Source of the DNA: Hyphomicrobiales bacterium
Lineage (GTDB): Bacteria > Pseudomonadota > Alphaproteobacteria > Rhizobiales > Aestuariivirgaceae
DNA: 64,000 nucleotides
Assembly: GCA_046349175.1 (NCBI GenBank)
Contig: JAXMCS010000004.1
Location: forward strand, 43,017-107,016
Direction: 5' to 3'
The position numbers and the translations under genes are program-made. Each line of letters starts with the position of its first letter. Within the stretch, counting starts at the first letter, position 1. Below the pieces are notes generated by a model. That model did not search any database and had not been told where the DNA came from. It was given only the letters and a program-made list of their open reading frames with translations. Positions 5,658 to 29,601 of this stretch are shown here, piece by piece.

Positions 5658-7061
5658 TCAGAAGTCCTTGGTCAGGCGGAAATCCACGGTGTGGCTGTCG
5701 TAGTCATACATGTCCACATTGCTGCGGTTATGCACATAGGTGTATTCCACCGTGGGCGCGAAGCCGAAGAAATTGAGGTCACGCTTGGTCAGGTCCACCA
5801 TAGCGGTCAGGCGCTCGTCCTGGCGCGGAATGGCGAGGATGGGAAAGAGCCCGTCGAAGTCCATCTTCATGGCCGTGCCGCGGGCATTCACGGTGATGCC
5901 GCCGGGCAGTTCCTTGTAGAAGCCGAGACCCGCCGACCACTGGTCATAGGACTGATAGTCGTTGAAGGCATTGACGCGGCTGTAGCCGCCAAACACGGTG
6001 GCGTTCAGGCTGGGGTCGAAGGTGTGTTCGAGGGCCCAGTCGCCGCCATAGGACGTGCCATCGTGATTGTCCTTTTCCAGGCTGTTCTTCCACTGGTAGT
6101 TCGCGCTGGCATTCACCCGGTCATGGGTGGTCACATTGTATTGCGCCGAAATGCGTGGCCCATAGGACAGCACATGTTCGAAAGCCGATTCCGTGGGCGT
6201 CTTGTCGTAAAGTGTCATGCCCTGGCTGGCGACGGCGCCAAAGCCAAGGAAGCCCTTGTCCAGCATGTAGCGCACTTCGGCGGATTCACTCAGGCCATAG
6301 CTGTTGAAATCGCTGTCCTGATAGAGCGAGGCATAGGCATTGGCGGCCGAGACAAAGGAGAAGTCATTGCCCAGGCGGCGCGAAAAGCCAACCGATGCGC
6401 CCACCGCAGCACCAACACCGGATTTTTTCTTGGTGATGTTGGCGGGAACGGCCTGCCCCGTGAACGGATCATAGACCGTCATGGTGGAATGGTTGGAGCC
6501 GCCATTGATGTTGTTGGTGGGTGCCGCCGAAATGAAGGCCGAATATTTGATGGGCAGCTTCTGGTCGATCCTGTCGATGAAGGAGCGGATGCCCTTGGCC
6601 ATGTCTTCGCTCGGCGCGGATTGCGCGAGAATGTCGAGATGGTGCTTGGCGCTGTCGTCTTCGTCGAGTTCCGTCAGCGTCTGCGCCAGTTCGGCACGCA
6701 CCAGTGTGAGGCCGGGGTCGCTGGCAAGGGCGGCACGGTATTTTTTCGCGGCCCCCGTCAGGTCGCCGCGCGACTTGAGGATCAGACCTTCGATGAAGAG
6801 CGTGCGGTTGGCCCCATGCGCCCCGGAGAGGGGATAGTGCTGCAACAGGGCTTCCGCCAGATCAGGCTGGCCACCCTTGGCCAACTGGATGAGAAGCCGC
6901 GTGCGCGTGGCTTCATCCAGCTTTTCATATTCAGCCGTCTGCGCCGCGGTCGGCGTTGTGGCGGCAGAAGCCTGAGGGGCCACGAGAAGCGCCCCCGGAA
7001 ACAGCAGCAGCGCGCAGAAGGCTGCGCGCTGTGCGAGAGATATGGCCAGAGCCCGGTTCAA
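5658..7061 (-). CDS. Surface lipoprotein assembly modulator (Slam, DUF560; type XI secretion translocon)
   Basis: Signal peptide, TPR-like helices (YRAALASDPGLTLVRAELAQTL), NINGGS motif, beta-barrel ending RSNVDMYDY...FRLTKDF with terminal Phe. Confidence 0.85.
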   Translation of the reverse strand: MNRALAISLAQRAAFCALLLFPGALLVAPQASAATTPTAAQTAEYEKLDEATRTRLLIQLAKGGQPDLAEALLQHYPLSGAHGANRTLFIEGLILKSRGDLTGAAKKYRAALASDPGLTLVRAELAQTLTELDEDDSAKHHLDILAQSAPSEDMAKGIRSFIDRIDQKLPIKYSAFISAAPTNNINGGSNHSTMTVYDPFTGQAVPANITKKKSGVGAAVGASVGFSRRLGNDFSFVSAANAYASLYQDSDFNSYGLSESAEVRYMLDKGFLGFGAVASQGMTLYDKTPTESAFEHVLSYGPRISAQYNVTTHDRVNASANYQWKNSLEKDNHDGTSYGGDWALEHTFDPSLNATVFGGYSRVNAFNDYQSYDQWSAGLGFYKELPGGITVNARGTAMKMDFDGLFPILAIPRQDERLTAMVDLTKRDLNFFGFAPTVEYTYVHNRSNVDMYDYDSHTVDFRLTKDF

Positions 7062-7071
7062 GTTGTCCCGG

Positions 7072-8403
7072 TCAGTTGCGCGTGGCGTTGAAGGCGCCGT
7101 TGATCGTCAGATAGCCGCGCTGGTCGTCGTTGATACCGGCCGAGCCGCCAACCGGATTGGGGTTGATGCCATAGACGTTGAACACGCCCGTGGTTTCGCT
7201 GGCACCCGTGCCGAAGAAGCTGCCGTAGACCGGATTGTCACCGGAGACGAAGCCGTTGTCGAGGGAGGCCGTGCCCGTGTAGTCGGCGGAGAGGCCAGCC
7301 GGCGTCGCACCCTTGGCCGGGGTCCGGCCGATGTCGGCGGTGATGGCGATGGTCGTGTCGTAGAAGCCATATTTGGGATCGGCAGTCGGCGTGCCTGAAT
7401 AGGTCAGGGCGCCGCTGTCAGGCGTTGCGCCATTGGTGCCGCTGAAGTTCGAGGTGTACCACGTATAATCGGAACTGAGGGAGCTCTGGTAGCTGCTCCA
7501 GGTTTCCGGTGTCAGTGTGCCCGTGAGTGAGGCATTGTCAAAGTCCACATCAATGTTGCTGCCGCCCTGAACACGCCACAGGGCGTTGGGGTTCACGTCG
7601 GCACCCGTGGCCTTGGCCCAGTTGGCGGTCTTGGCCGTGGCCACGAAGCGGCCCGTATAGTTTGCCGTGCCGGTGGTATCGACGTCGGTTGACTTGTTGC
7701 CACCATAGGACCAGGCCTGCTGTTTGGCTTCGCCGCCACCCGGCGTGCTGCGGTATTGCGTGGCAAAGCTGTCGGTCCAGGCCCAGACCTGCAGGGTTTC
7801 GTCGCGGCCATTGGAGTCACTGAGGGCGCGGTATTCGCGATAGTTTGTGCCGGAGCCACCGTTTTCCGCGGCGGAACCCGCATTGTAGGGGTCGGTCGCG
7901 TTGGTGCCATCGGGATATTCGTCCATCAGCACAGGCACCGGCCAGTTGCCATTTGTGCTGGTGTTGGTGTCGACCGCGATCTTCAGCTTCGAGGGCTTTG
8001 TGCCGAGGATTGAGGCAATAGCTGCGGTGTTGGACGCCGTCGATGTCGTGTTCGTCAATGACAGGCTGGACGTGGATTCACCTGTTGTGGGCAGGATGAG
8101 CTTGCCCGATTCAAGCGCAATGGTGCGGTTGCCTGTTTTCAGGTTGGTGGTGTTCCCGCCTGCGTCGGAGCCGCCTGACGAGCTGCTGCCACTGCTGCCG
8201 CCAGAGGAACTGCTGCTGCCACCGCCGCTGCTGGACGAAGAACCACCGCCCGATGAGCTGCTGCTGGAGGAGCCGGGAATGTCATTGCACGGCAGGCCGC
8301 AGACGATGCCGTCGGATGCGAGCGTCATCGCTCCGTTGCCTCCGGCGCAACCCGCCAGCGAGGTGGAAATGGCCAGAAAGGCCAGTACAGGAACAACACG
8401 CAT
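7072..8403 (-). CDS. TbpB-like Slam-dependent surface lipoprotein
   Basis: Lipobox LAGC, Ser/Gly tether, C-terminal barrel motifs GTANYTG and YGSFFGTGASETTGVF; immediately upstream of the Slam gene. Confidence 0.8.
   Translation of the reverse strand: MRVVPVLAFLAISTSLAGCAGGNGAMTLASDGIVCGLPCNDIPGSSSSSSSGGGSSSSSGGGSSSSSGGSSGSSSSGGSDAGGNTTNLKTGNRTIALESGKLILPTTGESTSSLSLTNTTSTASNTAAIASILGTKPSKLKIAVDTNTSTNGNWPVPVLMDEYPDGTNATDPYNAGSAAENGGSGTNYREYRALSDSNGRDETLQVWAWTDSFATQYRSTPGGGEAKQQAWSYGGNKSTDVDTTGTANYTGRFVATAKTANWAKATGADVNPNALWRVQGGSNIDVDFDNASLTGTLTPETWSSYQSSLSSDYTWYTSNFSGTNGATPDSGALTYSGTPTADPKYGFYDTTIAITADIGRTPAKGATPAGLSADYTGTASLDNGFVSGDNPVYGSFFGTGASETTGVFNVYGINPNPVGGSAGINDDQRGYLTINGAFNATRN
8170..8275 (-). 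repeat. Ser/Gly low-complexity coding linker (imperfect AGC/GGC repeats)
   Basis: Encodes GSSSSSSSGGGSSSSSGGGSSSSSGGSSGSSSSGGS. Confidence 0.8.
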
Positions 8404-8493
8404 GATCACTACCCACACAGATAACTCGTCTCCTCAAATTGCAGATGTTCCGCTAAATTTCCGTTAAGCGTAATTTTCGGTAGGTGTTTCAAA

Positions 8494-9786
8494 GTGCGAC
8501 AGGTCAACAATCTTGTGGAAAGCTGGTACGAGGCCACGGCCAATCGGCCTTCGTATTCGGCGCTGGCAGGAGACATCACGGCGGATGTCTGTGTCGTCGG
8601 TGGTGGCCTTGCCGGTCTCACTGTCCTGCGGGAATGCCAGGCGCGCGGCCTCAGCGCTGTGATGTTGGAGGCCTCGCGTGTCGCCGCTGCCGCGTCCGGC
8701 CGCAATGGCGGCTTTGTCTCCAGTGGCTTTGCGCTGGGCACGGAAGACCTGGCGAAGCGCGTGGGTTGGGATGAAACCAAGGCCCTGTATGGGTTGTCAC
8801 GCATGGGCACCGATTATGTGCGCGAAACAATTGCCCGGCACGACCCCGCCATCAAGCATGGCGACGGCATGCGCGTGGTGCTGCGCCATCCCGATGCCAA
8901 GGGCCTGCAAGACTATGCGGACCTTGTGCGAAGCAAGCTGGGCGAGGAGGTGCAAGTGCTCGATGTCGCAGAAACGCGTCAGCTGCTGAACTCCGAGCGC
9001 TACTGGCAGAGTCTCTATTCGCCACAGGCTTTCCACATCCACACCCTGCGCTATGGCCTGCTGGTAGCGGAGCTTGCTGTAAAAAATGGCGCCCGCATTT
9101 TCGAGGACACGTCCGCCCTTTCGGCGGTGCGGGATGGCACTGAGTTCAAGGTCACAACACCCGGCGGCACGGTCAAGGCCCGGCATGTGGTGCATTGCGT
9201 GTCAGCGCTCGGCACGCGCCTGCACCGTCCCTCGGGCCGCGCCATTCTGCCAGTGGCCACCTATGTGGCCGTCACAGAACCCCTGCCGCAGCAGGACGCC
9301 ATCCGCACGCCCTCAGCCGTTGCGGACACCCGCCGCGCCGGAAACTATTACCGCCTCCTGCCCGATGGCCGCATCCTCTGGGGTGGCCAGATCACCACGC
9401 GCGTTTCCGAGCCTGCGCGCCTGGCGGAGGTCATGCGCCGCGACATGGTCTCGGTCTTCCCGCAACTCGCCAAGGCTCGCATGCAATATGCCTGGGCCGG
9501 GCTGATGGGCTACGCCCGCCACATGATGCCGCTGATCGGGCAGGACCGGGAGGGCCAATGGTTTGCCACGGGCTTTGGCGGCCATGGCCTCAACACCACC
9601 GCCATGGCGGGGCTGCTGGTGGCCCGGGGCCTTGCCGGCGAAGACGATGCCTGGCGGCGCTTCGCGGCCTTTCCCGCCCAGTATGGCTTTGGCCAACTGG
9701 GAAGGCTGGGGGTGCAGGCCACCTACTGGCGGATGCAGTGGCAGGACCGGCTGGACGAGCGCCGGGCCCGCAAGGCCTCTGGCTGA
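8494..9786 (+). CDS. FAD-dependent oxidoreductase, DAO/PuuB-like
   Basis: DVCVVGGGLAG, ASGRNGG, YAWAG, GFGGHG motifs. Confidence 0.88.
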   Translation: MRQVNNLVESWYEATANRPSYSALAGDITADVCVVGGGLAGLTVLRECQARGLSAVMLEASRVAAAASGRNGGFVSSGFALGTEDLAKRVGWDETKALYGLSRMGTDYVRETIARHDPAIKHGDGMRVVLRHPDAKGLQDYADLVRSKLGEEVQVLDVAETRQLLNSERYWQSLYSPQAFHIHTLRYGLLVAELAVKNGARIFEDTSALSAVRDGTEFKVTTPGGTVKARHVVHCVSALGTRLHRPSGRAILPVATYVAVTEPLPQQDAIRTPSAVADTRRAGNYYRLLPDGRILWGGQITTRVSEPARLAEVMRRDMVSVFPQLAKARMQYAWAGLMGYARHMMPLIGQDREGQWFATGFGGHGLNTTAMAGLLVARGLAGEDDAWRRFAAFPAQYGFGQLGRLGVQATYWRMQWQDRLDERRARKASG

Positions 9787-9883
9787 CACGCGAATCGCGC
9801 CGATTCCCCAAGGGTTTGTCAGGTCTTGTGAGCGTCATGTGAGGCCGCTATAAGCCGCCAACTTTTGGGTGAGAGACACGCAC

Positions 9884-10303
9884 ATGACTTCTGAAGCTCT
9901 TGAGGCCAACTACAAGCCCAGCGACGATGAGCCCTTCATGAACGAGCGGCAGGTCGTGTACTTCCGCAACAAGCTGCAGATGTGGAAGGAAGACATCATC
10001 AAGGAGAGCAAGGAGACGCTGTCGCACCTGCAGGATGAAAACCACGTGCTGCCGGACATCGCCGACCGCGCCTCCTCGGAAACCGACCGCTCCCTGGAAC
10101 TGCGCACCCGCGACCGCCAGCGCAAGCTCATCTCCAAGATTGATGCAGCACTGAAGCGCATCGACGACGGCACCTACGGCTATTGCGAGGAAACGGGCGA
10201 GCCCATTTCACTGCGCCGCCTCGACGCCCGCCCCATCGCCACATTGTCCATCGAAGCGCAGGAACGCCACGAGAAGCGCGAGCGCGTTTACCGCGACGAC
10301 TGA
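9884..10303 (+). CDS. dksA: RNA polymerase-binding protein DksA (single-Cys type)
   Basis: DIADRAS coiled-coil tip, RDRQRKLISKID, YGYCEETGEPI..RL.ARP. Confidence 0.96.
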   Translation: MTSEALEANYKPSDDEPFMNERQVVYFRNKLQMWKEDIIKESKETLSHLQDENHVLPDIADRASSETDRSLELRTRDRQRKLISKIDAALKRIDDGTYGYCEETGEPISLRRLDARPIATLSIEAQERHEKRERVYRDD

Positions 10304-11094
10304 ACCATCACCGAGCGGGCCTCGTCCAGCAAGGCCTCTGAGGTGGCACACAGCACATTGCCGCCAAGCGCCGGATTGTTGTCCGTCCAGCTGCCAACGG
10401 CCGCACCTGCGCCCCGCATGATCGGCACCAGGGCCGCGATGTCATAAATCTGCAGCACCGGGTCCATGGCAATGTCGAGACTGCCCGCCGCCAGAAGCGC
10501 GAAGGAATAGCAGTCGAGTCCGAAACGCGTGGTCTGCACCCGCTGCTGCAAGGCCGCAAAACCGGCACCATCCCGGTCCTTGTAAAGATGCGGGGCCGTT
10601 GTGCCCACCATGGCGGCGGCAAGCCCTGCCGTGGCCTTGACCCGAATCTGCCGTTCTTGGCCCGCATGGCGCTGGAAGCTGCCCGCCCCGGAGCCATAAT
10701 AAAGATCATCCACAAAGGGCTGATACATCACACCCAGAAGCGGCGTGTCACCATCATAGAGTGCAATCAGCGTGGCCCAGGTGGGCAGGCCGATCACAAA
10801 GGCCCGCGTGCCATCCACCGGATCGAGAATCCAGCGCAGGCCGGAGGTGCCCAGGGTGGTGCCAAACTCCTCGCCGAGGATGCCATGGCTGGGGTGATGC
10901 TTCTCGATCAGGTGGCGGATGGCCCGCTCGCCCGCCCGGTCGCCCTCGGTCACCGGGTCCCAGTGTTCGCCGGGCTTGATGTCAATCGGGGTGTTCTGGC
11001 GAAAATGCGGGAGGATGGCCCGGCCAGCCGCTTCGGCGAGCGTCAGGGCAAAGCGGGTGAGGTCCGCAAGGTTGGATGCAGGGGTGTGGGTCAT
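10288..11094 (-). CDS. Inositol monophosphatase family protein (HisN/SuhB-like)
   Basis: DPVTEGD, GEE, WILDPVDGT, YDIAALVP motifs. Confidence 0.88.
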   Translation of the reverse strand: MTHTPASNLADLTRFALTLAEAAGRAILPHFRQNTPIDIKPGEHWDPVTEGDRAGERAIRHLIEKHHPSHGILGEEFGTTLGTSGLRWILDPVDGTRAFVIGLPTWATLIALYDGDTPLLGVMYQPFVDDLYYGSGAGSFQRHAGQERQIRVKATAGLAAAMVGTTAPHLYKDRDGAGFAALQQRVQTTRFGLDCYSFALLAAGSLDIAMDPVLQIYDIAALVPIMRGAGAAVGSWTDNNPALGGNVLCATSEALLDEARSVMVQSSR

Positions 11095-11166
11095 GCAGCC
11101 TCAGATATCCTGAGTCTGTCGGGAAAACACCCGTTTTGGCCGCTTTTTGTGCTGCAATGCCGCATT

Positions 11167-11185
11167 TATGTTGCATTGCAACATA
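11167..11185. promoter_or_regulatory. Perfect 9-1-9 palindrome, candidate PhaR/AniA-type operator
   Basis: TATGTTGCA-T-TGCAACATA inside an AT-rich intergenic region with several further TGCA units. Confidence 0.55.
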
Positions 11186-11329
11186 GCGAGGTGGTCATGC
11201 AGAATTTGCATATCTAAAGATTATGCAATAAAAACAATGGAATAAATATGCAGAAGGGCGTTTTTGACGGAATTCCCTCAGAATGCAACGACCGTGCGTC
11301 TTGAAATACAAATGTTGCAGTGCCAATTA

Positions 11330-11428
11330 GGGTCCATCGAGACCGGAGCCATGCTCCCTCTCGCAGCCCTTTTGGGCGTTTCCTCCCTAGACTTGGGCCG
11401 ATCACCTTCGTGTATCGGCCCTTTTTTA
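11330..11428 (+). ncRNA. mmgR: MmgR / suhB (alpha-r8) family small RNA; 5' end approximate
   Basis: TTTCCTCCCT decamer at 11379-11388 followed by a GC hairpin and U-tract; located between IMPase and N-formylglutamate amidohydrolase genes as known for this family. Confidence 0.8.
11395..11428 (+). terminator. Rho-independent terminator of the sRNA
   Basis: GGGCCGAT...ATCGGCCC followed by TTTTTT. Confidence 0.85.
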
Positions 11429-11448
11429 TTGCGGAAGGGCCATCGGCC

Positions 11449-12336
11449 TTACTCTGCCGCAAGGGGCTGGGCGGGCTCTTCCATCATGCCGGTGAGGAGA
11501 GTGGCCAGCCGCTCGGCCAGCCGGTCCAGGACTTGCCGCAGCGCGTCAAAGCCCCGGGTTTTTTCCTGCCGCCGTTCATCCATATAAAGACTGCGGTTGA
11601 TTTCAATCTGCAAGGCATGACGCCCCAGCCGCGGTTGGCCGTTGTTCTCCGTGCTGAATCCGCCGGCATAGGGCCGGTTGCGCGCCACGCTGAGGCCTGC
11701 TTCCGTGAACAGGGCCTCCACCGCGGCCGTCATCTCCGGCAAGGCGGAACAGCCATGCCGGTCACCCAGCACCACATCCACATTGCGCAAGCGTCCGCCA
11801 TGGCTTTCGGCCACGGCACTCGCCGGCATGGAGTGGCAATCCACCAGCAGCACCACGCCAGTGGCCTGATGCGCCTCGTTGAGAAGGGCGGCCAGGGCCC
11901 GGTGGTAGGGCTTGTAGCTGTCTTCAATGCGCTGCAGCGCCACCGCCAATGGCATGCGGCCGCGGTAGATGTCCTGTCCCTCCGCCACGATGCGCGGCAG
12001 CGTGCCGAGACCACAGGCCACCCGCGGCGAAGCCGAATTGAAGTGCGGCGGCAGGTGTTCAATGAACATCCGCGGGTCGAGTTCAAAAGGTTCGCGATTG
12101 AGGTCGATATAACTGCGCGCCAGCAGGGCCCGCAGCAGCGGGGCCCCCGCCGCCACGCAGCCGCCAAAGAGCTCGTCCACAAATGTGTCTCGCGATTGCA
12201 GCAGGCTGTCCGCCGATAGCTTGGATTGCTCAAGGAAAGCCTGCGGCAGGCCATCGCCGCTGTGCGGCGAACTGAACACCATGGGCGCCGTCCACTGCGC
12301 CGGGGCGATGATTTCAAAGACACTGTCAGCGGGCAT
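11449..12336 (-). CDS. hutG: N-formylglutamate amidohydrolase
   Basis: SSPHSG, DTFVDEL, IDLNR, DCHSMP, PYAGG, HALQIEINRSLYMDE. Confidence 0.9.
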   Translation of the reverse strand: MPADSVFEIIAPAQWTAPMVFSSPHSGDGLPQAFLEQSKLSADSLLQSRDTFVDELFGGCVAAGAPLLRALLARSYIDLNREPFELDPRMFIEHLPPHFNSASPRVACGLGTLPRIVAEGQDIYRGRMPLAVALQRIEDSYKPYHRALAALLNEAHQATGVVLLVDCHSMPASAVAESHGGRLRNVDVVLGDRHGCSALPEMTAAVEALFTEAGLSVARNRPYAGGFSTENNGQPRLGRHALQIEINRSLYMDERRQEKTRGFDALRQVLDRLAERLATLLTGMMEEPAQPLAAE

Positions 12337-20095: not shown

Positions 20096-20309
20096 CCGCG
20101 CTGTAATGTTGCCCAAGTCGTCTCTCGCAAAGCTAGGAGTGTGCATGAAGGGCGTCAACACGCAGCGCGGGATGCGGGGTCACGTATAGTGACCCTGTTT
20201 TTCCGGAATGAATGTGACTTGCAACCATGATAGGGGAGGCCCCCGGTTGGGGTGGGCGCAGGTGAGGCCGCGCCACAGTTGCGTTGAAAGATAGCGGGAG
20301 ATGGCAGGC

Positions 20310-21227
20310 ATGGCGCAAATCATCACATGTGCTGGAGAATGCATGGTGGAGTTCTCCTCCACCGAGAGCGGGCTCTACCGGCGCAGCTTTGCCGGCGACA
20401 CCTTCAACACCGCCTGGTATTTGCGGCGGCTGCTGCCGCAGGATGTGGCGGTTGACTATGTCACCCGCATTGGTGACGATCGGCAATCCCAGGACATGCT
20501 GGCCTTCATGCGGGAGAGCTGTGTCGGCACCCGTCATGTGAAGGTGATGGCGGGCAAGAGTTGCGGCCTATACACAATCGCGCTGGAGGCGGGCGAACGC
20601 AGCTTCTGCTATTGGCGCAGCGCCTCCGCCGCCCGGCATCTGGCAGATGACCCGGCACTGTTGCAAGAGGCCCTTGGCGCATCGGATTGCCTTGTCTTCT
20701 CTGGTATCACGCTGGCGATCCTTCCGCCTGTGGGCCGTGAGGCGCTTCTGGCTGTGGCAAAGGCCCGCAAAGAAGCAGGGGCCATGGTGGCCTTTGATCC
20801 CAACATCAGGCCGCGCCTGTGGTCCGGCCCGGATGAAATACGGGACTGGCTCAACCGCGCCTATGCCGTGGCCAGCCTGGCCTTACCGAGCTTCGCGGAT
20901 GAGGCCGCGATCTTCGGTGATGCCAAGCCCGAGGCCACCGCCACACGCCTTGCGGCGCTTGGCGTGGGCGAGATCGTGGTGAAGGATGGCGGTGAGCCAT
21001 CTCAGGTCGTCAGCGCTGCCGGGGCAAGTTTTGTGCCCGCACCGGCTGCGATCACCCCCCGCGATACCACCGGTGCCGGTGACAGTTTCAATGCCGGATA
21101 CATCGCCCGCCGTGTGCAGGGCGGCACACCAGAGCAGGCTGCCGCCGCCGCCCATGACCTCGCGGGCCAGGTGATCCAGGGCTACGGCGCATTGGTGCCT
21201 GTCGCGATCCCTCACGCGCCGCACTGA
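20310..21227 (+). CDS. kdgK: 2-dehydro-3-deoxygluconokinase-like PfkB kinase
   Basis: GECMVE, FAGDTFNTA, FDPNIRPRLW, DTTGAGDSFNAG. Confidence 0.82.
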   Translation: MAQIITCAGECMVEFSSTESGLYRRSFAGDTFNTAWYLRRLLPQDVAVDYVTRIGDDRQSQDMLAFMRESCVGTRHVKVMAGKSCGLYTIALEAGERSFCYWRSASAARHLADDPALLQEALGASDCLVFSGITLAILPPVGREALLAVAKARKEAGAMVAFDPNIRPRLWSGPDEIRDWLNRAYAVASLALPSFADEAAIFGDAKPEATATRLAALGVGEIVVKDGGEPSQVVSAAGASFVPAPAAITPRDTTGAGDSFNAGYIARRVQGGTPEQAAAAAHDLAGQVIQGYGALVPVAIPHAPH

Positions 21228-21292: not shown

Positions 21293-21322
21293 TTGGGGGA
21301 AGGTGTGATACAGGGCAGCCGT

Positions 21323-22006
21323 GTGAGCCGTGTCGGAGACGTAATCAGTGGCATCACCAGCCACATGCGCAAGCATGATCTCATGCCCGGCGACAGGTTG
21401 CCTTCGGAATCCGTACTGGCCAAGGAGCTGAATGTCTCGCGCGCCACGGTGCGGGAGGCCTTCCAGTCTCTCGCCACCATGCGCATCATTGAACTCGCCA
21501 CAGGCAAGCGTGCCACCGTGGCGCAGATTGACCATGGCGCGCTCTCGCTGATGATCGAGCACGGCGTTCACACCGACCAGATCAACATCCAGCAGATCTA
21601 CGACGTGCGCCGCACCATCGAAACGCGCATTGCCACCTTGGCCTCCATCCGGCGCAGCGATGCCGAAGCCAAGGACATTCTGGCCCTGGCCGCCGAGATG
21701 GAAGCGAGCCGCAACACGCCTGCGCGCCTGATGGAGAGTGATCTCGCTTTTCACATGGCGCTGGCCAAGGCTTCCGGCAATCCCGTCTATGTGCTGCTCA
21801 TCGGGGCCTTTCAGGGCATCACCCGCCAGACCTGGCCCATTGGCTGGAAAAGCCGCACCACCCAGGCCTCCCGCGATCTGATGATCGCCACCCATGTGGA
21901 ACTCTCCCAGGCTGTGGCGGCGGGCAATCCGCAGGCGGCGCTCGATTGCATGACCCGTCATTTTGACGAAAGCGTCCGCGCCCTGCTGGCGGCAGGCATG
22001 TCATGA
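21323..22006 (+). CDS. GntR/FadR family regulator (start approximate)
   Basis: PGDRLPSE..LA..LNVSRATVREA; FCD domain DLAFH...SGNP. Confidence 0.92.
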   Translation: MSRVGDVISGITSHMRKHDLMPGDRLPSESVLAKELNVSRATVREAFQSLATMRIIELATGKRATVAQIDHGALSLMIEHGVHTDQINIQQIYDVRRTIETRIATLASIRRSDAEAKDILALAAEMEASRNTPARLMESDLAFHMALAKASGNPVYVLLIGAFQGITRQTWPIGWKSRTTQASRDLMIATHVELSQAVAAGNPQAALDCMTRHFDESVRALLAAGMS

Positions 22007-22013
22007 GTCGGCC

Positions 22014-23216
22014 ATGAAAATCACCGCCCTCGAAACGGTTCGCATCGCAGAGCGCCCCAACCTCATCTGGGTTCTGGTGCACAGTGATGCGGGGATTTCG
22101 GGGCTGGGCGAAAGCTTCTTCGGGGCCTCTGCCGTCGAGGCCCACGTGCATGACTATATCGCGCCCCGCGTGATCGGGCGCGATCCCACACAGATTGATC
22201 TCCTGAGCGCCGACCTGGTGGGTTATCTCGGCTTCCGCTCATCGGGCGCGGAAATGCGTGGCAACTCCGCCTTTGATATCGCGCTCTGGGATCTTTGCGG
22301 CAAGGCCACAAACCAGCCCATCGCGCAAATGCTGGGCGGCTTCACCCGCCCCGCCATCCGCACCTACAACACCTGCGCCGGCACGGACTATGTGCGAAAG
22401 ACAACAGGCCAGGTGACAGCCAACTACGGCCTCGATGAAACCAACAGCTATGACGATCTGAACGGTTTTCTCAACCGGGCCGATGAACTGGCGCTGTCGC
22501 TCCTCGACGAGGGCATCAGCGCCATGAAGATCTGGCCCTTTGACCGGGCCGCCGAAGCGACGCGCGGGCAGTATATCTCCGTGCCCGACATGAAGCTGGC
22601 ACTTCAGCCCTTCGAGAAAATCCGCCGCGCCGTGGGCGACAGGATGGACATCATGGTGGAGTTCCACTCCATGTGGCAGCTCCTGCCCGCCATGCAGATT
22701 GCGAAGGCCTTGGCACCCTATCAGACCTTCTGGCACGAAGACCCGATCAAGATGGACAGCCTGGCCAGCCTGAAGCGCTATGCCGATGTCTCGCCCGCCC
22801 CCATCTCCGCTTCAGAAACTCTTGCCACCCGCTGGGGCTTCCGCGACCTCTTGGAGACAGGGGTGGCCGGCGTGGTGATGCTCGATCTGAGCTGGTGTGG
22901 CGGCCTCTCGGAGGCCCGCAAGATCGCCGCCATGGCCGAGGCCTGGCATCTGCCGGTGGCACCGCACGACTGCACCGGCCCCGTGGTGCTCACCGCCTCG
23001 ACGCATCTGTCGCTCAATGCCCCCAACGCCCTCATCCAGGAGAGTGTGCGGGCCTTCTATCGCACCTGGTACGGTGATCTCGTCACGGCCCTGCCGGCTG
23101 TCGAGAAGGGCATGATCACCGTGCCGCCGGGCCCGGGCCTTGGGCTTGAACTTCACCCGGACATCGACCGGGCATTCCATACGTCGCGCCGCGTGTCCGA
23201 CGTTTCAACGGTCTGA
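22014..23216 (+). CDS. Mandelate racemase/enolase superfamily sugar-acid dehydratase
   Basis: GLGESF, SAFDIALWD, KIWP, VEFH, WHEDP, SETL, APHDCTGP, PGLG. Confidence 0.9.
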   Translation: MKITALETVRIAERPNLIWVLVHSDAGISGLGESFFGASAVEAHVHDYIAPRVIGRDPTQIDLLSADLVGYLGFRSSGAEMRGNSAFDIALWDLCGKATNQPIAQMLGGFTRPAIRTYNTCAGTDYVRKTTGQVTANYGLDETNSYDDLNGFLNRADELALSLLDEGISAMKIWPFDRAAEATRGQYISVPDMKLALQPFEKIRRAVGDRMDIMVEFHSMWQLLPAMQIAKALAPYQTFWHEDPIKMDSLASLKRYADVSPAPISASETLATRWGFRDLLETGVAGVVMLDLSWCGGLSEARKIAAMAEAWHLPVAPHDCTGPVVLTASTHLSLNAPNALIQESVRAFYRTWYGDLVTALPAVEKGMITVPPGPGLGLELHPDIDRAFHTSRRVSDVSTV

Positions 23217-23250
23217 CAAGACCACAACAGAGCAATGGGAGGAACTGACA

Positions 23251-24231
23251 ATGAATAAACTCAAGGGACTGGCCATCACAGCGCTGATGCTGGCTGGCGT
23301 TTCGGCAAGTGCCTGGGCGGATGACAAGATGGAAATCGCCTTCACCGTCCACTCCGGCGCGTCCAACACCTTCTGGCAAGCCGTGCAGAAGGGCTATGAG
23401 GATGCCTGCGGCAAGATCGGCGCCAATTGCCAGATGGTCTATGTGCAGACCGACGGCTCGATTCCCGAGCAGGTGGCCAACATGGAGGCCGCCATCGCCC
23501 GCAAGCCCGATGCCCTGATCACCTCGATCGTGGACAACACCGCCTTCGATGACGTGATCAAGCGCGCCCGCGATGCCGGCATCACCGTGATTGCCTCCAA
23601 CGTGGACGATCTGGAAGGAGCCAATGGCAACGCCCGCCAGGCCTTCATCGGCCAAGGCTTCATTCCCGCCGGCTACAATCTGGCCAAGGCGCAATGGGCC
23701 AACATGCCGAAGGATGGCGATCTGCACGTTCTCGTGGGCGTCTCGGGCCCCGGCCAGAACTGGTCGGAGCAGCGCGCCAAAGGCGTCACCGATTTCCTTG
23801 ATGAGCAGATCAAGGCAAATCCGAACCGCAAGATCACCTATGAGAAAATCGACTCCGGCACTGACCTTGCCGTCACCTCGGACCGTGTGGGTGCCTATCT
23901 CGCCGCCCATCCCGAAACCAACGCCTACTTTGACACGGGCTTCTGGCATGCCGGCGTGGCAGGCGTGCTGAAGGACCGCGGCGTGGCGCCGGGCAAGGTG
24001 CTGCTGGCGGGCTTTGACCTTGTGCCGGTGGTGCTGGATGCCATGGACTCCGGCTACATCCAGGTCGAAGTTGACCAGCAGCCCTATGAGCAGGGCTTCA
24101 TGCCGGTGATGGAAGCCTATCTGGCCAAGGCCGTGGGCCTGTCTCCGGCCGACATCAACACCGGCAATGCCCTCGTTTACCCCAAGGATGTGCCGTCCGT
24201 GCGGGCGCTCTCTGAAAAGGGTCTGCGCTAA
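23251..24231 (+). CDS. Sugar ABC transporter (CUT2) substrate-binding protein
   Basis: Signal peptide, FW..V..G, AGFDL, DQQPYEQG. Confidence 0.9.
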   Translation: MNKLKGLAITALMLAGVSASAWADDKMEIAFTVHSGASNTFWQAVQKGYEDACGKIGANCQMVYVQTDGSIPEQVANMEAAIARKPDALITSIVDNTAFDDVIKRARDAGITVIASNVDDLEGANGNARQAFIGQGFIPAGYNLAKAQWANMPKDGDLHVLVGVSGPGQNWSEQRAKGVTDFLDEQIKANPNRKITYEKIDSGTDLAVTSDRVGAYLAAHPETNAYFDTGFWHAGVAGVLKDRGVAPGKVLLAGFDLVPVVLDAMDSGYIQVEVDQQPYEQGFMPVMEAYLAKAVGLSPADINTGNALVYPKDVPSVRALSEKGLR

Positions 24232-24298
24232 GTCATGAATGGAGCCGGCGCGGTGTGAAGCCGCGCCGGTTCGCTTTTCTTTCAGGGAATGTCTCCGC

Positions 24299-25285
24299 AT
24301 GCGCCGTATCATCAAACTCGCCCTGCAGAAGCCGGAACTGGCCAGCGCCATTCTGCTGGTGCTGCTCATCGCGCTTTTCCAGATCCGCTCCGACGGCATT
24401 TTCCTGTCGGTTAACAATCTGCGCGGCATATTGGGCCTGCTGCCGGAAACAGCGCTTGCTGCCGTGGGCGTGACCCTGCTGATGATCTGTGGCGAGTTTG
24501 ACTTGTCCGTGGGCTCTGTCTTCGCCCTCATGCCCATGACGGTTGCGGTGCTCACCGTCAGCGGCTGGCCCTTCTGGCTGGCGGTGCTTGCAGGCGTGGT
24601 CATGTGCGCGGGCATCGGCTTCATCAACGGCTGGATCACCATACGCTTCGACATCCCCTCCTTCATCACCACGCTGGGCATGTTGTTCATGGCCCGCTCC
24701 ATGACGGTGGTGGTCTCCGGCGGCTTTCCGCCGCGCATCAAGCCCGGCGAGGTGCCAAGCTGGGTCTTCGTCGGCTTCATCGACGGCGATGGCCTGATCC
24801 GCGCCTCGGTGCTGTGGTTTGCAGGAATCGCGATCCTCATCAGCCTGCTTCTGTCGCGCACCAATTTCGGCAACTGGGTGCGCGCCACCGGCGGCTATCT
24901 GCCCGCTGCGGCGGCCATGGGCATACCCACGGGCCGTGTGAAAATCGCTTGCTTCATGATCTGCTCCGTTCTGGCAGGCCTCGCGGGCCTCATTCAATCC
25001 CTGCGCCTTAACTCCTTCCTGCCGTCAATCGGCGAAGGCATGGAGCTTCAAGCCGTGGCCTCCGCCGTGATCGGCGGCACATCACTGTCGGGCGGCGTGG
25101 GCTCCATCGTCGGTGGCCTGATCGGTGCAACCCTCATCCGGGTGATCGACAATGGCATGGTGATGAGCCAGATCGATGCCAACTGGTTCAAGTTCGCGGT
25201 GGGTGCGCTCACCATCTTCGCCGTGGTGGGCAATGCCTGGCTGCGCCGCCGTGGCCGCGCGATGAAAGTGGAGACCGGCAAATGA
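24299..25285 (+). CDS. Sugar ABC transporter permease
   Basis: GEFDLSVGS, IPSFITTLG, ELQAVASAVIGGTSLSGG. Confidence 0.92.
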   Translation: MRRIIKLALQKPELASAILLVLLIALFQIRSDGIFLSVNNLRGILGLLPETALAAVGVTLLMICGEFDLSVGSVFALMPMTVAVLTVSGWPFWLAVLAGVVMCAGIGFINGWITIRFDIPSFITTLGMLFMARSMTVVVSGGFPPRIKPGEVPSWVFVGFIDGDGLIRASVLWFAGIAILISLLLSRTNFGNWVRATGGYLPAAAAMGIPTGRVKIACFMICSVLAGLAGLIQSLRLNSFLPSIGEGMELQAVASAVIGGTSLSGGVGSIVGGLIGATLIRVIDNGMVMSQIDANWFKFAVGALTIFAVVGNAWLRRRGRAMKVETGK

Positions 25286-26013
25286 GCACGCCCATCATTG
25301 AAACCCGCAATCTGCACAAGTGGTATTCCGGCGTCCACGCCCTGAAGGGGGTGAGCCTGAAGGTGGAGAAGGGTGAGGCGCTGGGCCTCGTCGGCGACAA
25401 CGGTGCCGGCAAGTCCACCCTCATCAACATCCTCTCGGGCCTGCACCGCCAGGATGAGGGCGAGATCCTGCTCGAGGGCAGTCCGGTGGATATCCGCACC
25501 CCCAAGGACTCCATGCGCCTCGGCATCGAGACCATCTACCAATACAATTCCATGGTCCCGCTCATGACCATCTCGCGCAACGTCTTCATCGGGCGCGAAC
25601 CGCTCAAATGGTCAATCGGTGGCATCGGCATTCTCGATGAGAAGAAGATGCGGGAAGAATCGGTCAAGGCCATTGCCGACGTTGACCTGCACCTGCGCTC
25701 GCCCGATGCGCTGGTGGGCGAACTTTCCGGTGGCCAGCGTCAGGGCGTGGCCATTGCCCGCGCCATGCACTTCAAGTCCAAGGTCATGATCCTCGACGAA
25801 CCAACCAATCATCTGTCGGTCAAGGAAACCGCCAAGGTGATCGGCTTTGTGAAGGGCCTCAAGGCACAGGGCGTCACCTCCATTTTCATCAGCCACAACA
25901 TGCACCATGTTTTTGCCTGCTGTGACCGCGTGGTGGCCATGGCCTTGGGGCAAGTCGTGCTCGACAAGCCGGTGAAGGACACGTCCATCGAGGAAGTTTC
26001 GGAACTCCTGTAG
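25282..26013 (+). CDS. Sugar ABC transporter ATPase (single NBD)
   Basis: GDNGAGKST, LSGGQRQ, ILDEPT, SHN. Confidence 0.93.
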   Translation: MSTPIIETRNLHKWYSGVHALKGVSLKVEKGEALGLVGDNGAGKSTLINILSGLHRQDEGEILLEGSPVDIRTPKDSMRLGIETIYQYNSMVPLMTISRNVFIGREPLKWSIGGIGILDEKKMREESVKAIADVDLHLRSPDALVGELSGGQRQGVAIARAMHFKSKVMILDEPTNHLSVKETAKVIGFVKGLKAQGVTSIFISHNMHHVFACCDRVVAMALGQVVLDKPVKDTSIEEVSELL

Positions 26014-26017
26014 CGCC

Positions 26018-26725
26018 ATGACCGACCTGTCCGGCAAGCACGCATTGATCACCGGCGGCGCGGGCAGCCTGGGCAGGGCCTTTGCCGCCGCCTTTGCCAC
26101 GGCAGGCGCAAGGGTGACAGTGCTGGACCGGCCGGGCGAAAAACCTCTCCCCGGCTGCGGCTGGCTGGGCATTGACCTTGCCAACCTCAAGGCGGCGGAG
26201 GCTGCCGTGGCCGCGGCTGGTCCCTTCGACATTCTCGTGAACAATGCCGCCATCATTCTCAACAGGCCTTTCGAGGACTTCAGCCTGGAGGACTACGAAG
26301 AGCAGGTTCGCGTCAATTCCTCCGCCGCCTTCGCACTGGTGCGCGCCTGCGCGCCGGGCATGAAGGCCAAGGGGGCCGGACGGGTGATCAACCTCACCTC
26401 GCTCACATTGAACGGCCAGTGGGATGGCTATGTGCCCTATGTCGCCTCCAAGGGTGCCATGCTGGGCCTGACCAAGGGCCTGGCGCGCGAATTGGGAAAG
26501 CACGGCATCACCGTCAATGCCATTGCGCCGGGGGCCGTCCTGTCCGAAGCCGAGAACCGGGTGTTTGCGGACCGCCTCGAGGAATACAATGCTTTCGTTC
26601 TGAAGAACCAAAGCGTGAAGTCCCGTATCAGGCCGGAGGACGTGGCCGACCTCGCGGTGTTTCTGGCCTCCGACAAGGCCCGCATGATTTCCGGCCAGAA
26701 CATCGGCATCGATGGGGGATGGTGA
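26018..26725 (+). CDS. SDR oxidoreductase
   Basis: TGGAGSLG, NNAA, YVASK, NAIAPG. Confidence 0.9.
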   Translation: MTDLSGKHALITGGAGSLGRAFAAAFATAGARVTVLDRPGEKPLPGCGWLGIDLANLKAAEAAVAAAGPFDILVNNAAIILNRPFEDFSLEDYEEQVRVNSSAAFALVRACAPGMKAKGAGRVINLTSLTLNGQWDGYVPYVASKGAMLGLTKGLARELGKHGITVNAIAPGAVLSEAENRVFADRLEEYNAFVLKNQSVKSRIRPEDVADLAVFLASDKARMISGQNIGIDGGW

Positions 26726-26786: not shown

Positions 26787-27892
26787 ATGACAGCAGCCGC
26801 AACTGGCATTCCCGTCGGCAAGAGAGACTATAGTCTTGTGGGCCCTGACAGCCGCAGGGCTGTGGAAGTGGGCCTGGCCTCGGCCGAATGGTATCACTCG
26901 GAGGTGCCGCGCGCCGTGATGAAGGAACTGATGAAGCGCAGCGATGGCCCGGCCATCCGCGACACCATCCTGTGGTTCGCGCTGTTCTTCGTCAGCGCCT
27001 GGGGTGGCATCCATTACTGGGGCACCTGGGCCTGTGTGCCCTTCTTCTTTGTCTATGGCGTGCTCTATGGCTCTTCCACCGACAGCCGCTGGCACGAATG
27101 TGGCCATGGCACCGCCTTCGCCACCCCCTGGATGAATGACGTGATCTACAACATCGCCAGCTTCATGGTGATGCGCAATCCGGTGATCTGGCGCTGGAGC
27201 CACGCCCGCCACCACACCGACACCTACATTGTGGGCCGCGACATCGAGATCATCTGGATGCGCCCGCCCAAGACACTGGCGAATTTCCTGGCGCTGTTTG
27301 ACGTGATCGGCACGGTCAAGTCCTTGCAGGGCCTCATCCGCCAGGCGCTGGGCAATCTGTCGCCTGACGAGAAGGATTTCATCCCCGAAAGCGAGTGGGG
27401 CAGGTGGCCTTTGCGGCCCGCGTGCATGTGGCCATTTACATCGCCACCATCGCCGCTGCCCTGTGGATGGGCTCATGGCTGCCACTTTTCCTCATCGGCC
27501 TGCCGCGCATCTTCGGCAGTTGGCACATGGTGATGACCGGCCATTTGCAGCATGCCGGCCTTGACGACAATGTGCTGGATCACCGGCTGAACTCCCGCAC
27601 TGTCTATATGAATCCCATCAGCCGCTATCTCTATTGGAACATGAACTACCATGTGGAACACCACATGTTCCCCATGATTCCCTATCACGCGCTGCCCCGG
27701 CTGCATGAGCTGGTGAAGAACGACATGCCGCCGCCCAACACTTCCATCCTGGATGGCTATCGCGAAGTCTGGGCCTCCTTGCGCCGCCAGAAGACCGAGC
27801 CGGAATATGCCTTCCGCAAGCAACTGCCGCCAACAGCACGGCCTTACCGCGAGGAGTTCCATAACCTGCACATCGCCCGCCCGGGCACGTGA
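26787..27892 (+). pseudogene. Fatty-acid-desaturase-family (MocD-like) oxygenase, frameshifted near 27400 (probably a 1-nt error)
   Basis: RDYSL N-terminus, His boxes HECGH and HARHH in the first frame, NMNYHVEHH in the second; GAG TGG GGC A[A]G GTG restores the frame. Confidence 0.82.
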
Positions 27893-27896
27893 GAGC

Positions 27897-28697
27897 ATGT
27901 CCATGTCCAGAAAGAAGCCAACCATCGCCGATTTGCGCGCCCTGAAAGGCAAGGGCCAGCGCACCATGCTGCGCGTGATGACGCTGGAGCAGGCAGCCGC
28001 TGCCGAGGCGGCCGGCATCGACATCGTGTCGGTTCCGGCTGAACTGGTCACCCACCCGCGCTACCGGGAAGTGGCCCCCACGCTCTTTTCGATGACGGGC
28101 GTCACCCATCTCGAAGCGGGTAGCCGTGATGACTATCTGCGCTGGGCCTGCAAGGTAGTGCTGGCAGGGGCCGATGCCGTCTATTGCTCAGGCGGTCTTG
28201 GCACGGTGGAACATGTGGCGCGCGAACATATTCCGGTGGTGGGCCATGTCGGCCTGGTACCGAGCCGCGCCACCTGGACCGGCGGCATGAAGGCCGTGGC
28301 CAAGACGGCGGAAGGAGCACTCGCGCTCCTTGAAGAGGTGCGGGCCTATGAAGCGGCAGGCGCCTTCGCCGTCGAGATTGAAGTGGTGCCGCAGGAAGTG
28401 GCCGCCGCCATCAGCCAGAAGACCGGGCTTCTGCTCTGGTCCATGGGTTCCGGGCCGGGCTGCGATGCGCAGTATCTTTTCGCTGAAGACATTCTTGGCG
28501 AAAACCGCGGGCACATGCCGCGCCACGCCAAGGTCTATCGCAACTTCGCCGCCGAGTATGACAGGCTTCAGGCGGAACGCGTCAAGGCCTTCGCCGAATT
28601 CCGCGCCGATGTGGACTCAGGGGCCTTCCCGCAAGACAGCCAGGTCGTGCGCATGGACCCGCGTGAACGCGACACGTTTCTCAAGGCGATCGGGTAG
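27897..28697 (+). CDS. PanB-like (ketopantoate hydroxymethyltransferase fold) protein with a non-canonical active site
   Basis: GHVGLVPS, EIEVVP, GSG..CDAQYL..DILG, PRHAKVY retained; GDS and ADMPF motifs absent. Confidence 0.8.
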   Translation: MSMSRKKPTIADLRALKGKGQRTMLRVMTLEQAAAAEAAGIDIVSVPAELVTHPRYREVAPTLFSMTGVTHLEAGSRDDYLRWACKVVLAGADAVYCSGGLGTVEHVAREHIPVVGHVGLVPSRATWTGGMKAVAKTAEGALALLEEVRAYEAAGAFAVEIEVVPQEVAAAISQKTGLLLWSMGSGPGCDAQYLFAEDILGENRGHMPRHAKVYRNFAAEYDRLQAERVKAFAEFRADVDSGAFPQDSQVVRMDPRERDTFLKAIG

Positions 28698-28732
28698 GCC
28701 CTGGTCTCTCGGATTGAACATCATTCTAGTTG

Positions 28733-28816
28733 GTCATGGCCCGCTTCAAGCGGGCCACCCATGACGCCATGGTGATGTTGCCAACAGTGGATCGTCCGCG
28801 TGAAGCGGACGATGAC
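28733..28816. repeat. REP/BIME-like paired palindromic element
   Basis: GTCATGGCCCGC-TTCAA-GCGGGCCACCCAT and an inverted partner GTGGATCGTCCGC-GTGAA-GCGGACGATGAC between convergent genes. Confidence 0.65.
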
Positions 28817-28854
28817 GGTCTTTGATTTTCAGGTCCGGCGGGTAAAACCAATTC

Positions 28855-29601
28855 TCAGCTCGCCGCCGCCGTTGGCCCGAAGGCCGCCTTCAAATCCGCT
28901 TCAGCGGCATTGAGCAGCGTCTGCATGGCGGAAGCCGCCGCCTTGGCATCACCCTTGGACACGAGGTTGAAAATGCGCAGATGCGATTCATAGGAATCGA
29001 TCAGGCTGTGGCCGCGAAGCTTCTGGCCGCGGCGGCTGGCTGAGAAAGCCTCCACCAATGGTGCCATCATGCCTTCAAACAAATAGATCAGCACGCGGTT
29101 GCCACCGGCCAGGGCAAGCGCCTCGTGAAAGCCCACATCGGCGCGGTGGAAGCGCATCTCTTCTTTGAGCGGATCGTCAGCCGCTTCATAGCCTTCGGCA
29201 ATCTCTTTCATTTGCGATAGGGCAACCCCAACCGCCACAAGGCCGGAGCGGCTGGCGCTCTTCGCGGCTAGGATCACCGACTGGATTTCGAGGCTGCGCC
29301 GCACCTCCACCAGATCAAACAGGCAGCGGGGATCAGACTTGATGAGCGAGGTAAGAAACTCGCCATAGGTCGAGCCATCGGGATGGCGCACCTCGGCCCG
29401 GCGACCACGTTGCACCTGGACAAGCCCCCGGCCCGCCAGAATTTTCAGGGCTTCGCGGATGGTGACGCGGCTCACCTCATGGGCCGCCGCCAGTGCCGCT
29501 TCACTTTCCAGCTGCTCGCCGGGCTGCATGCCCTGGATGATGCGCTGGGCAATGGCTTCGGCAACCTGGCTGGTGGCCACCTGTTTGCCGACTTTGCTCA
29601 T
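28855..29601 (-). CDS. GntR/FadR family regulator
   Basis: PGEQLESE..LA....VSRVTIREALK; DVGFHEAL...GNR. Confidence 0.92.
   Translation of the reverse strand: MSKVGKQVATSQVAEAIAQRIIQGMQPGEQLESEAALAAAHEVSRVTIREALKILAGRGLVQVQRGRRAEVRHPDGSTYGEFLTSLIKSDPRCLFDLVEVRRSLEIQSVILAAKSASRSGLVAVGVALSQMKEIAEGYEAADDPLKEEMRFHRADVGFHEALALAGGNRVLIYLFEGMMAPLVEAFSASRRGQKLRGHSLIDSYESHLRIFNLVSKGDAKAAASAMQTLLNAAEADLKAAFGPTAAAS

Follow-up and report, generated by a model that had tools for sequence, protein, structure and literature searches.

The stretch of DNA studied here, which we call the window, is 64,000 nt of contig JAXMCS010000004.1 (C4) from assembly GCA_046349175.1, forward strand 43,017-107,016. All positions given below without a contig are in window numbering. 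At the end of a sugar catabolism operon the window carries two genes in tandem. The first encodes a MocD-like integral-membrane di-iron oxygenase and the second a protein with the fold of PanB, the hydroxymethyltransferase of pantothenate biosynthesis. We will call this second protein PanB-like. This work focuses on what a relative of PanB may be doing next to an oxygenase. An earlier reading, made from the letters of the window alone (the sequence-only reading), described the pair and suggested that the PanB-like protein handles a one-carbon (C1) unit, and we say below how that suggestion stands once other genomes and structures are taken into account.

The PanB-like protein

The oxygenase gene stops at TGA 27890-27892 and the next ATG is at 27897, 4 nt on, which is the spacing given in the sequence-only reading. 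Orthologues of the PanB-like protein begin at what is here the second Met, which favours ATG 27903 as the start. The gap is then 10 nt and fits the 9-15 nt found in most adjacent orthologous pairs.

Membership in the PanB family is clear at the level of the fold. PF02548 (Pantoate_transf) matches at 129.6 bits against a gathering threshold of 28.7, although over residues 77-246 only. The AlphaFold (AF2) model has a pLDDT of 92, and its best Foldseek matches are PanB structures (3vav/1m3u, E ~1e-18, TM ~0.69). Next come members of the isocitrate lyase/phosphoenolpyruvate (PEP) mutase group at ~1e-7, including methylisocitrate lyase and oxaloacetate decarboxylase. The NCBIfam models built for panB itself stay well below their cut-offs (TIGR00222, 93.7 against 207.55; NF001452, 114.5 against 272), and only residues 61-250 align to them.

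The residues explain which part of PanB is missing. Compared with E. coli PanB (1m3u), a segment of 17 residues that includes Asp45 of the GDS motif is deleted, Asp84 has become Gly68, the carboxylate-binding Lys112 has become Tyr96 and Glu114 has become Ser98. Thus the Mg2+ ligands Asp45, Asp84 and Glu114 are all gone, together with Lys112. His136 (His117 here, in GHVGLVP) and Glu181 (Glu162, in EIEVVP) are kept. Within the family Gly or Thr replaces the Asp of the canonical ADxPF, and VYCSG stands in place of KxEG. The sequence-only reading had claimed that GDS, ADMPF and KxEG were lost while GHxGLxP and ExVP were kept, and both the alignment with E. coli PanB and that of the family agree. 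The family alignment holds 26 sequences, including the canonical PanB of this genome. Its invariant columns are P113, H117, G119, G129, G155, E162, G184, D190, D198, G201 and P208, and four near-invariant motifs are peculiar to the PanB-like members: TWTGG, PRHAK, Tyr214 and VYC.

The gene is an intact frame under selection. The ratio of nonsynonymous to synonymous substitution rates (dN/dS) is 0.04 for the PanB-like gene and 0.07-0.08 for the two parts of the oxygenase gene against the closest orthologue. dS is saturated, and these values indicate strongly purifying selection on the PanB-like gene and on both oxygenase halves in a qualitative sense only.

We believe the idea of a second pantothenate enzyme can be rejected. 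The residues of the Mg2+/2-oxoacid site are lost, the scores fall below the panB cut-offs, and a canonical panB lies on contig C6. A search for such a gene elsewhere in the genome had been proposed in the sequence-only reading, and the gene found (C6:81621-82382) scores 350 bits against Pfam, has all of the motifs including all four residues, and matches solved PanB structures over its full length. The PanB-like gene is therefore not the only panB of the genome. Both types occur in four of the five other genomes examined; in one complete genome we found the PanB-like type only and no canonical PanB. Judged by these residues, the PanB-like protein is a paralogue minus the Mg2+/2-oxoacid site, distinct from the pantothenate enzyme.

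One candidate relative was discarded. A 542-aa 'double PanB-like' protein (P0004) consists of two near-identical tandem copies and is probably an artefact of assembly or gene calling, not a fusion.

Conservation of the pairing

We surveyed the 80 closest loci, taking one genome per species. In 75 of them the sequence reaches at least 1300 nt beyond the PanB-like gene on its upstream side, and 73 of these 75 have a same-strand MocD-like gene no more than 3 kb upstream. It directly adjoins the PanB-like gene in 45 of the 73, and in most of the other 28 a gene for a MocE ferredoxin stands between the two. The whole operon type of the window (dehydratase, ABC transporter, short-chain dehydrogenase, MocD, PanB-like) recurs in at least 24 loci.

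A broader sample comes from an even draw of 400 Alphaproteobacteria, in which a MocD-like match was counted as strong at E <=1e-80 and a PanB-like match at E <=1e-70. Strong PanB-like matches occur in 11 of the 15 genomes with a strong MocD-like gene and in 11 of the 385 others, a contrast that is descriptive only, the genomes being related. The sequence-only reading depended on the pairing being conserved, and by both counts it is.

Complex prediction for an orthologous MocD and PanB-like pair (L013, alignments given) returned a score of 0.00 in both runs, but its controls did not fold, and the score counts neither for nor against a complex. In ten genomes (G053, G102, G134, G157, G197, G273, G297, G311, G399 and G412) the PanB-like profile matches proteins of ~281 aa over their full length but with lower scores, 143-196 bits, which set them apart from the strong PanB-like type and from ordinary PanB alike.

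One-carbon genes in rhizobial strings

In some rhizobia the PanB-like gene is followed by genes of one-carbon metabolism. The order on Mesorhizobium huakuii pMHb is desaturase, Rieske, ferredoxin reductase, PanB-like, purU, folD. In Phyllobacterium zundukense Tri-48 it is mocA-mocB-mocR-mocD-mocE-mocF-PanB-like-purU, and MocR, MocE and PurU there score above their equivalog or subfamily cut-offs in NCBIfam. The same string, purU included, occurs in S. meliloti RCAM1115 and Rhizobium sp. RU36D. In all four strings, rhizopine-type loci among them, purU comes straight after the PanB-like gene; folD comes next only in M. huakuii. The PanB-like gene and purU are contiguous in 40 plasmid records.

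FolD and PurU together turn 5,10-methylene-tetrahydrofolate into formate and free tetrahydrofolate. Once these steps are assigned, the formation of 5,10-methylene-tetrahydrofolate is the sole step in the strings without an assigned gene. From this context the PanB-like gene would be the only one left to load the carbon; its ancestor is an enzyme that uses 5,10-methylene-tetrahydrofolate as co-substrate. Without a catalyst, formaldehyde and tetrahydrofolate condense too slowly in vivo to sustain growth, and He et al. name no enzyme for it (PMC7073904).

The moc papers that could be searched treat mocDEF as a unit and are silent on the PanB-like gene and purU alike (the original papers of 1994 and 1998 lie outside this search). 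Nor did we find, in the searchable literature, any work that links rhizopine or mocD to a hydroxymethyltransferase or that names the three products together.

The oxygenase and its frameshift

The sequence-only reading placed the oxygenase in the desaturase family on the basis of three His boxes. This is correct. HECGH (27093-27107), HARHH (27201-27215) and HVEHH (27650-27664) supply the HxxxH, HxxHH and HxxHH boxes of a MocD-type enzyme, HLQHAG (27542-27559) is present in addition, and PF00487 scores 43.8 and 78.7 bits on the two halves against a threshold of 29.7. What that reading missed is that the gene is not a single uninterrupted frame. It is split into frame A, from 26787 to ~27401, and frame B, from ~27398 to 27892. 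One nucleotide has been deleted near 27398-27403; the missing base is within GAGTGGGGCAGGTGG, a place at which orthologues have EW-G/P-K/Q-V. Each of the two parts aligns collinearly with 22 intact homologues, of which 21 come from related loci and one is the paralogue on contig C2.

It is important to know how often this assembly, which is 70% complete and in 50 contigs, breaks its genes. A congeneric genome (G009) served as reference, and 306 kb of it were set against the whole assembly in both directions. Open frames of G009 revealed 18 junctions at which the frame switches among 160 orthologue-like genes of this assembly, against 2 among 155 in the reciprocal control. Frame switches occur about once per 10 kb of coding sequence across the assembly, unrelated orthologue-like genes included. 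Further examples are at C15:41856, C18:25845, C20:30807 and C2:56829. Because the assembly is so prone to indels we regard the MocD frameshift as quite probably an assembly artefact, and any broken gene in the window should be read with these frequent frameshifts in mind. Two homology-free scans were given up in favour of the orthologue-based count because adjacent genes dominated their signal and they did not discriminate. A scan for overlapping frames with high GC at third codon positions found 103 per Mb here against 153 in 80 related loci, and a scan for switch points in codon usage, which did recover the known MocD shift, found 91 against 87 per Mb. In both cases most hits were ordinary adjacent genes.

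The alternative is that the frameshift is real and the locus a decaying remnant, its pair non-functional in the present organism. Each of the three oxygenase/PanB-like sets of the genome does have a broken gene: MocD on C4, MocF on C2, split by an extra G in AGGG (9715-9718 of locus L009), and PanB-like on C12, with several frameshifts. However, both indels that were mapped lie in short runs of G or C, frame switches of this kind are common throughout the assembly, both halves of the oxygenase gene are under strong purifying selection with no other lesion, and all 22 of the aligned homologues are intact. We therefore find decay doubtful.

The surrounding operon

The pair ends a single co-directional string on the plus strand that runs from the kinase at 20301 to the end of the PanB-like gene at 28697, with a convergent GntR/FCD gene beyond (Table 1). 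The genes for GntR, dehydratase, ABC transporter and short-chain dehydrogenase come before it, so the sequence-only reading was right to place the pair in a sugar ABC/dehydratase/dehydrogenase operon.

Table 1. Genes of the operon and its borders, from open reading frames of the window and Pfam/NCBIfam profiles
Gene or product	Position	Strand	Basis
KdgK-like 2-keto-3-deoxy-sugar-acid kinase (PfkB family)	20301..21227	+	PF00294, 161 bits; NF052444 2-dehydro-3-deoxygluconokinase, 259 bits (cut-off 400)
GntR/FCD-type regulator, operon head	21293..22006	+	PF07729, PF00392
Enolase-superfamily acid-sugar dehydratase, start codon uncertain	21963..23216	+	PF13378, PF02746
Periplasmic sugar-binding protein of ABC transporter, start codon uncertain	23140..24231	+	PF13407
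ABC transporter permease	24239..25285	+	PF02653, 140 bits
ABC transporter ATPase, single cassette	25282..26013	+	PF00005
Short-chain dehydrogenase (SDR)	26018..26725	+	PF13561, PF00106
MocD-like integral-membrane di-iron oxygenase, two frames	26787..27892	+	PF00487 on both halves; His boxes
PanB-fold paralogue	27897..28697 (266 aa), likelier 27903..28697 (264 aa)	+	PF02548; intact frame
Second GntR/FCD regulator, convergent with the operon end	28855..29601	-	PF07729, PF00392

The other members of the string give some idea of the substrate. The KdgK-like kinase is probably a downstream step of the pathway. Models for galactonate and mannonate dehydratases match the dehydratase with scores under their cut-offs, and this protein is 63-85% identical in at least 24 related loci. 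The sugar-binding protein has a weak match to the NCBIfam model of the rhizopine-binding protein (126 bits, cut-off 420), and the ATPase is 74-95% identical across related operons. The SDR is possibly a sugar 1-dehydrogenase; its best NCBIfam matches include glucose and xylose 1-dehydrogenases, with every score under the cut-off. Judging from these neighbours, the compound taken up may be an O-methylated hexose, hexonate or uronate, with a 2-keto-3-deoxy acid as the end point.

GntR/FCD regulators (21293-22006 and 28855-29601) flank the operon at both ends. Orthologous operons have a GntR-like gene in the same position as the first of these, and in many of them the place of the second is taken by mocE, which lies ~820 nt past the PanB-like start in 12 related loci. 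A scan of 28600-28900 found no terminator or promoter. There is a 7-bp GC hairpin without a T-run between the convergent genes, and we claim no role for it.

Pfam and NCBIfam profiles found none of mocR, mocA, mocB, mocC, mocE and mocF within the 64-kb window. There is no Rieske ferredoxin in it either; contig C2 has the assembly's sole small MocE-type gene. The claim of the sequence-only reading that MocE and MocF are absent holds for the window, but it does not extend to the genome. Looking for mocE and mocF elsewhere, as that reading had advised, turns up both on C2 as part of a second MocD/PanB-like set.

Other copies in this genome and in distant relatives

The set on C2 (L009, C2:88000-106000; 7610-12225) consists of a MocD of 407 aa, a MocE that passes TIGR02377, the broken MocF reductase, a PanB-like protein of 270 aa that is 54% identical to that of the window, and a Gfo/Idh/MocA oxidoreductase. 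On contig C12 (L010, C12:14000-30000; 6410-8195, minus strand) the end of a PanB-like gene overlaps the start of a PF04116 oxygenase gene by 6-7 nt. This fatty-acid-hydroxylase-type di-iron membrane oxygenase is a second oxygenase family with a PanB-like partner.

Most contigs of the distant representatives are too short to inform about context. Those that do inform show several arrangements with the same kind of partner. One member lies in a group of Rieske, reductase, PanB-like and desaturase genes beside a TRAP binding protein, another in a group with PhyH and a desaturase, and in a third case a fatty-acid hydroxylase with MocE and MocF is divergent from the PanB-like gene. In a streamlined genome of 1.4 Mb a desaturase and a PanB-like gene have a Rieske ring-hydroxylating oxygenase and a glutamine-synthetase-like gene as neighbours.

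A further small genome (G239, 1.6 Mb; L163-L165) has four PanB-like and five MocD-like genes. One of its strings reads MocD, MocF, MocE, PanB-like, MocD, FA hydroxylase, and two tandem PanB-like genes lie beside a BNR/sialidase-like protein and an MFS transporter. There is also a conserved clade of PanB-like proteins ~40% identical to that of the window (L168-L172; G191, G421, G334, G149) that is likewise without the GDS segment. Its neighbours are ilvA, ftsH, a glutathione S-transferase or a branched-chain amino-acid binding protein, with no oxygenase nearby.

A proposed demethylation module

We propose that the MocD-like and PanB-like proteins would act together in oxidative O-demethylation, as a module that closes an operon for uptake and catabolism of a sugar or sugar acid. 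Gene content, the residues lost and kept, the conserved pairing and the purU/folD linkage are observed, and from them we infer every chemical step. First, the MocD-like membrane di-iron enzyme would use O2 to hydroxylate the O-methyl group of the imported compound. A reductase of the MocF type and a Rieske ferredoxin of the MocE type, whose genes in this genome are confined to contig C2, or else other carriers, would supply the electrons. The resulting hemiacetal would then give the free sugar and a carbon at the level of formaldehyde. Next the soluble TIM barrel of PanB fold would bind tetrahydrofolate and load this unit as 5,10-methylene-tetrahydrofolate; the His/Glu pair and the C-terminal half common to PanB are kept and the Mg2+/2-oxoacid site is gone. 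Oxidation by FolD and PurU would release the unit as formate and regenerate the cofactor, and the demethylated sugar would go on to the SDR, the dehydratase and the KdgK-like kinase.

We give the central claim, that the PanB-like protein captures a hydroxymethyl or formaldehyde unit on tetrahydrofolate in an O-demethylation module with the MocD-like oxygenase, a probability of roughly 0.55. The sequence-only reading had supposed a module for O-methylated or branched-chain sugars in which the PanB-like protein handles the C1 unit rather than making pantothenate. The protein is indeed not the pantothenate enzyme, and C1 handling is the role best supported, by the conserved pairing and by the linkage to purU and folD. 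Nothing indicates branched-chain sugars, however, and that part we drop.

Several points weigh against this proposal. Four of the 15 genomes of the even sample with a strong MocD-like gene are without a PanB-like gene, so the oxygenase can work without it. Eleven of the 20 PanB-like loci in the same sample have no recognisable oxygenase within ~3 kb; these include the ~40% identical clade in its unrelated contexts and extra copies in one genome. A purU or folD neighbour occurs only in rhizobial mocDEF-type strings and was seen at one of 65 loci close to the window, and purU was not found in this 70%-complete assembly. O-demethylation by MocDEF is a genetic proposal and not a demonstrated reaction. 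To our knowledge no structure has yet shown where PanB binds tetrahydrofolate, so that the retention of a folate-binding half is an inference from the conserved blocks common to both proteins. Finally, a real frameshift in the oxygenase gene would mean that the module is dead in the present organism.

A wider claim can be made more tentatively, and we hold it at somewhat less than even odds. The PanB-like family as a whole may be a dedicated tetrahydrofolate-dependent capture enzyme for formaldehyde or hydroxymethyl units. It would be the folate counterpart of Fae (see below), derived from PanB by deletion of the Mg2+/2-oxoacid site and repeatedly recruited by oxygenases of the MocD type and the fatty-acid-hydroxylase type.

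Comparison with known systems

PanB (EC 2.1.2.11; PDB 1M3U, 3VAV, 1O66/1O68, 1OY0) is the best match in both sequence and fold, and it has the same length. The two share the GH(V/L)GL(T/V)P block with His136, the ExxP block with Glu181, and a GxGxGxxxD...D(I/M)LG block. They differ in that the PanB-like protein is without the 17-residue GDS segment, has replaced Asp84, Lys112 and Glu114, and has TWTGG, PRHAK and VYC of its own. Its genes sit in catabolic oxygenase operons and not with pan genes, and they coexist with a canonical panB.

The MocDEF system for rhizopine (3-O-methyl-scyllo-inosamine) in Sinorhizobium/Rhizobium has an oxygenase of the same family (~58-67% identical between clades) with a MocE-family ferredoxin and a MocF-type reductase as partners, and in rhizopine-type loci the PanB-like gene comes right after mocF. 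The window is not such a locus. It has none of mocR, A, B, C, E and F beside its mocD, MocA-like, MocE and MocF genes being on C2, and its context is a GntR-controlled operon with acid-sugar dehydratase, SDR and KdgK.

In sarcosine oxidase and dimethylglycine dehydrogenase systems with purU and folD, the carbon removed by demethylation is caught on tetrahydrofolate and oxidised by FolD and PurU. The logic proposed for the PanB-like module would be the same. There, however, a GcvT-type folate-binding domain is inside the oxidase itself, whereas here a separate protein derived from PanB would do the work and the oxidase would be a membrane di-iron enzyme acting on an O-methyl ether.

Marine Bacteroidota demethylate 6-O-methyl-D-galactose with a P450 served by a ferredoxin and a reductase (PMC6292453, PMC9400963). 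As in our proposal, an oxygenase with a ferredoxin and a reductase acts on a methoxy sugar, and formaldehyde handling is genetically linked to it. The oxygenase is of another family, though, and formaldehyde is reportedly released and detoxified by separate pathways, not captured by a dedicated folate enzyme. Fae, for its part, catalyses a condensation of formaldehyde with a pterin carrier long thought to be spontaneous (PMC7073904). This would be the same job as the one proposed for the PanB-like protein, but Fae works with tetrahydromethanopterin, has an unrelated fold and shows no sequence relation to PanB-like proteins.

Other possible roles for the PanB-like protein

Apart from decay, three other readings deserve attention. 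Once the oxygenase has acted, the PanB-like protein might attack the sugar or cyclitol at its carbon skeleton, working for instance as an aldolase, lyase, isomerase or carbohydrate hydroxymethyl transferase, and leave folate-bound C1 alone. The PEP mutase/isocitrate lyase fold group, which Foldseek finds at ~1e-7, has members that cleave or form C-C bonds; some distant PanB-like members lie beside GH127, GH4 and GH88-like genes with no oxygenase visible on their short contigs; and many copies have no purU or folD nearby. Yet all three acidic Mg2+ ligands and the carboxylate-binding Lys, which stabilise the enolate in this fold group, are gone, and the blocks that remain are specifically those common to PanB. 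An enzyme of the carbon skeleton also leaves unexplained why purU, or purU and folD, should stand right behind the gene. We consider it unlikely.

The protein could also be a non-catalytic partner of the oxygenase, kept for its shape: it might serve as a scaffold, help assembly or give the ferredoxin a place to dock. A tight, translationally coupled pairing is typical of subunits, and the ancestral substrate site has been lost. But the former catalytic His and Glu are invariant, and TWTGG, PRHAK and Tyr214 are new and near-invariant among members 33-55% identical, so that this looks like a working pocket. The MocD-like genomes that do without the protein (the 4 of 15) and the many copies that stand alone also speak against it, and we think this role improbable.

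Just as improbable is a trap that puts formaldehyde on an acceptor other than tetrahydrofolate, such as a small metabolite, in folate-independent detoxification: there are PanB variants that reportedly need no folate to join free formaldehyde to 2-oxoisovalerate (cited in PMC7073904), and most loci close to the window are without folate genes, but the 2-oxoacid/Mg2+ site required for that side reaction is exactly the part that is lost, and wherever one-carbon genes are linked it is purU and folD that follow the PanB-like gene.

What the module would mean

The present annotation of these genes is probably wrong in a systematic way. RefSeq names PanB-like genes (for example L011 8962-9798 and L125 8007-8822) '3-methyl-2-oxobutanoate hydroxymethyltransferase' and gives them a Gene Ontology term for pantothenate biosynthesis. 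Several hundred genes with this label are probably mis-annotated. Such a label can mask a true pantothenate auxotrophy or create a false second panB.

The ingredients of our proposal are known: the PanB fold, the logic of tetrahydrofolate-linked demethylation and the MocD oxygenase. If capture on tetrahydrofolate is the true role, methyl groups removed from sugars and cyclitols would enter the folate pool and not be freed as formaldehyde. In that case the PanB-like protein would be a concrete candidate for an enzyme that catalyses the joining of formaldehyde to tetrahydrofolate. A natural and compact catalyst of this kind would account for the way oxidative demethylations escape damage by formaldehyde, and engineered assimilation of methanol or formaldehyde would benefit from it directly. 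The model of rhizopine catabolism, a system under engineering for plant-microbe signalling, now ends at mocDEF and would gain the PanB-like gene and purU.

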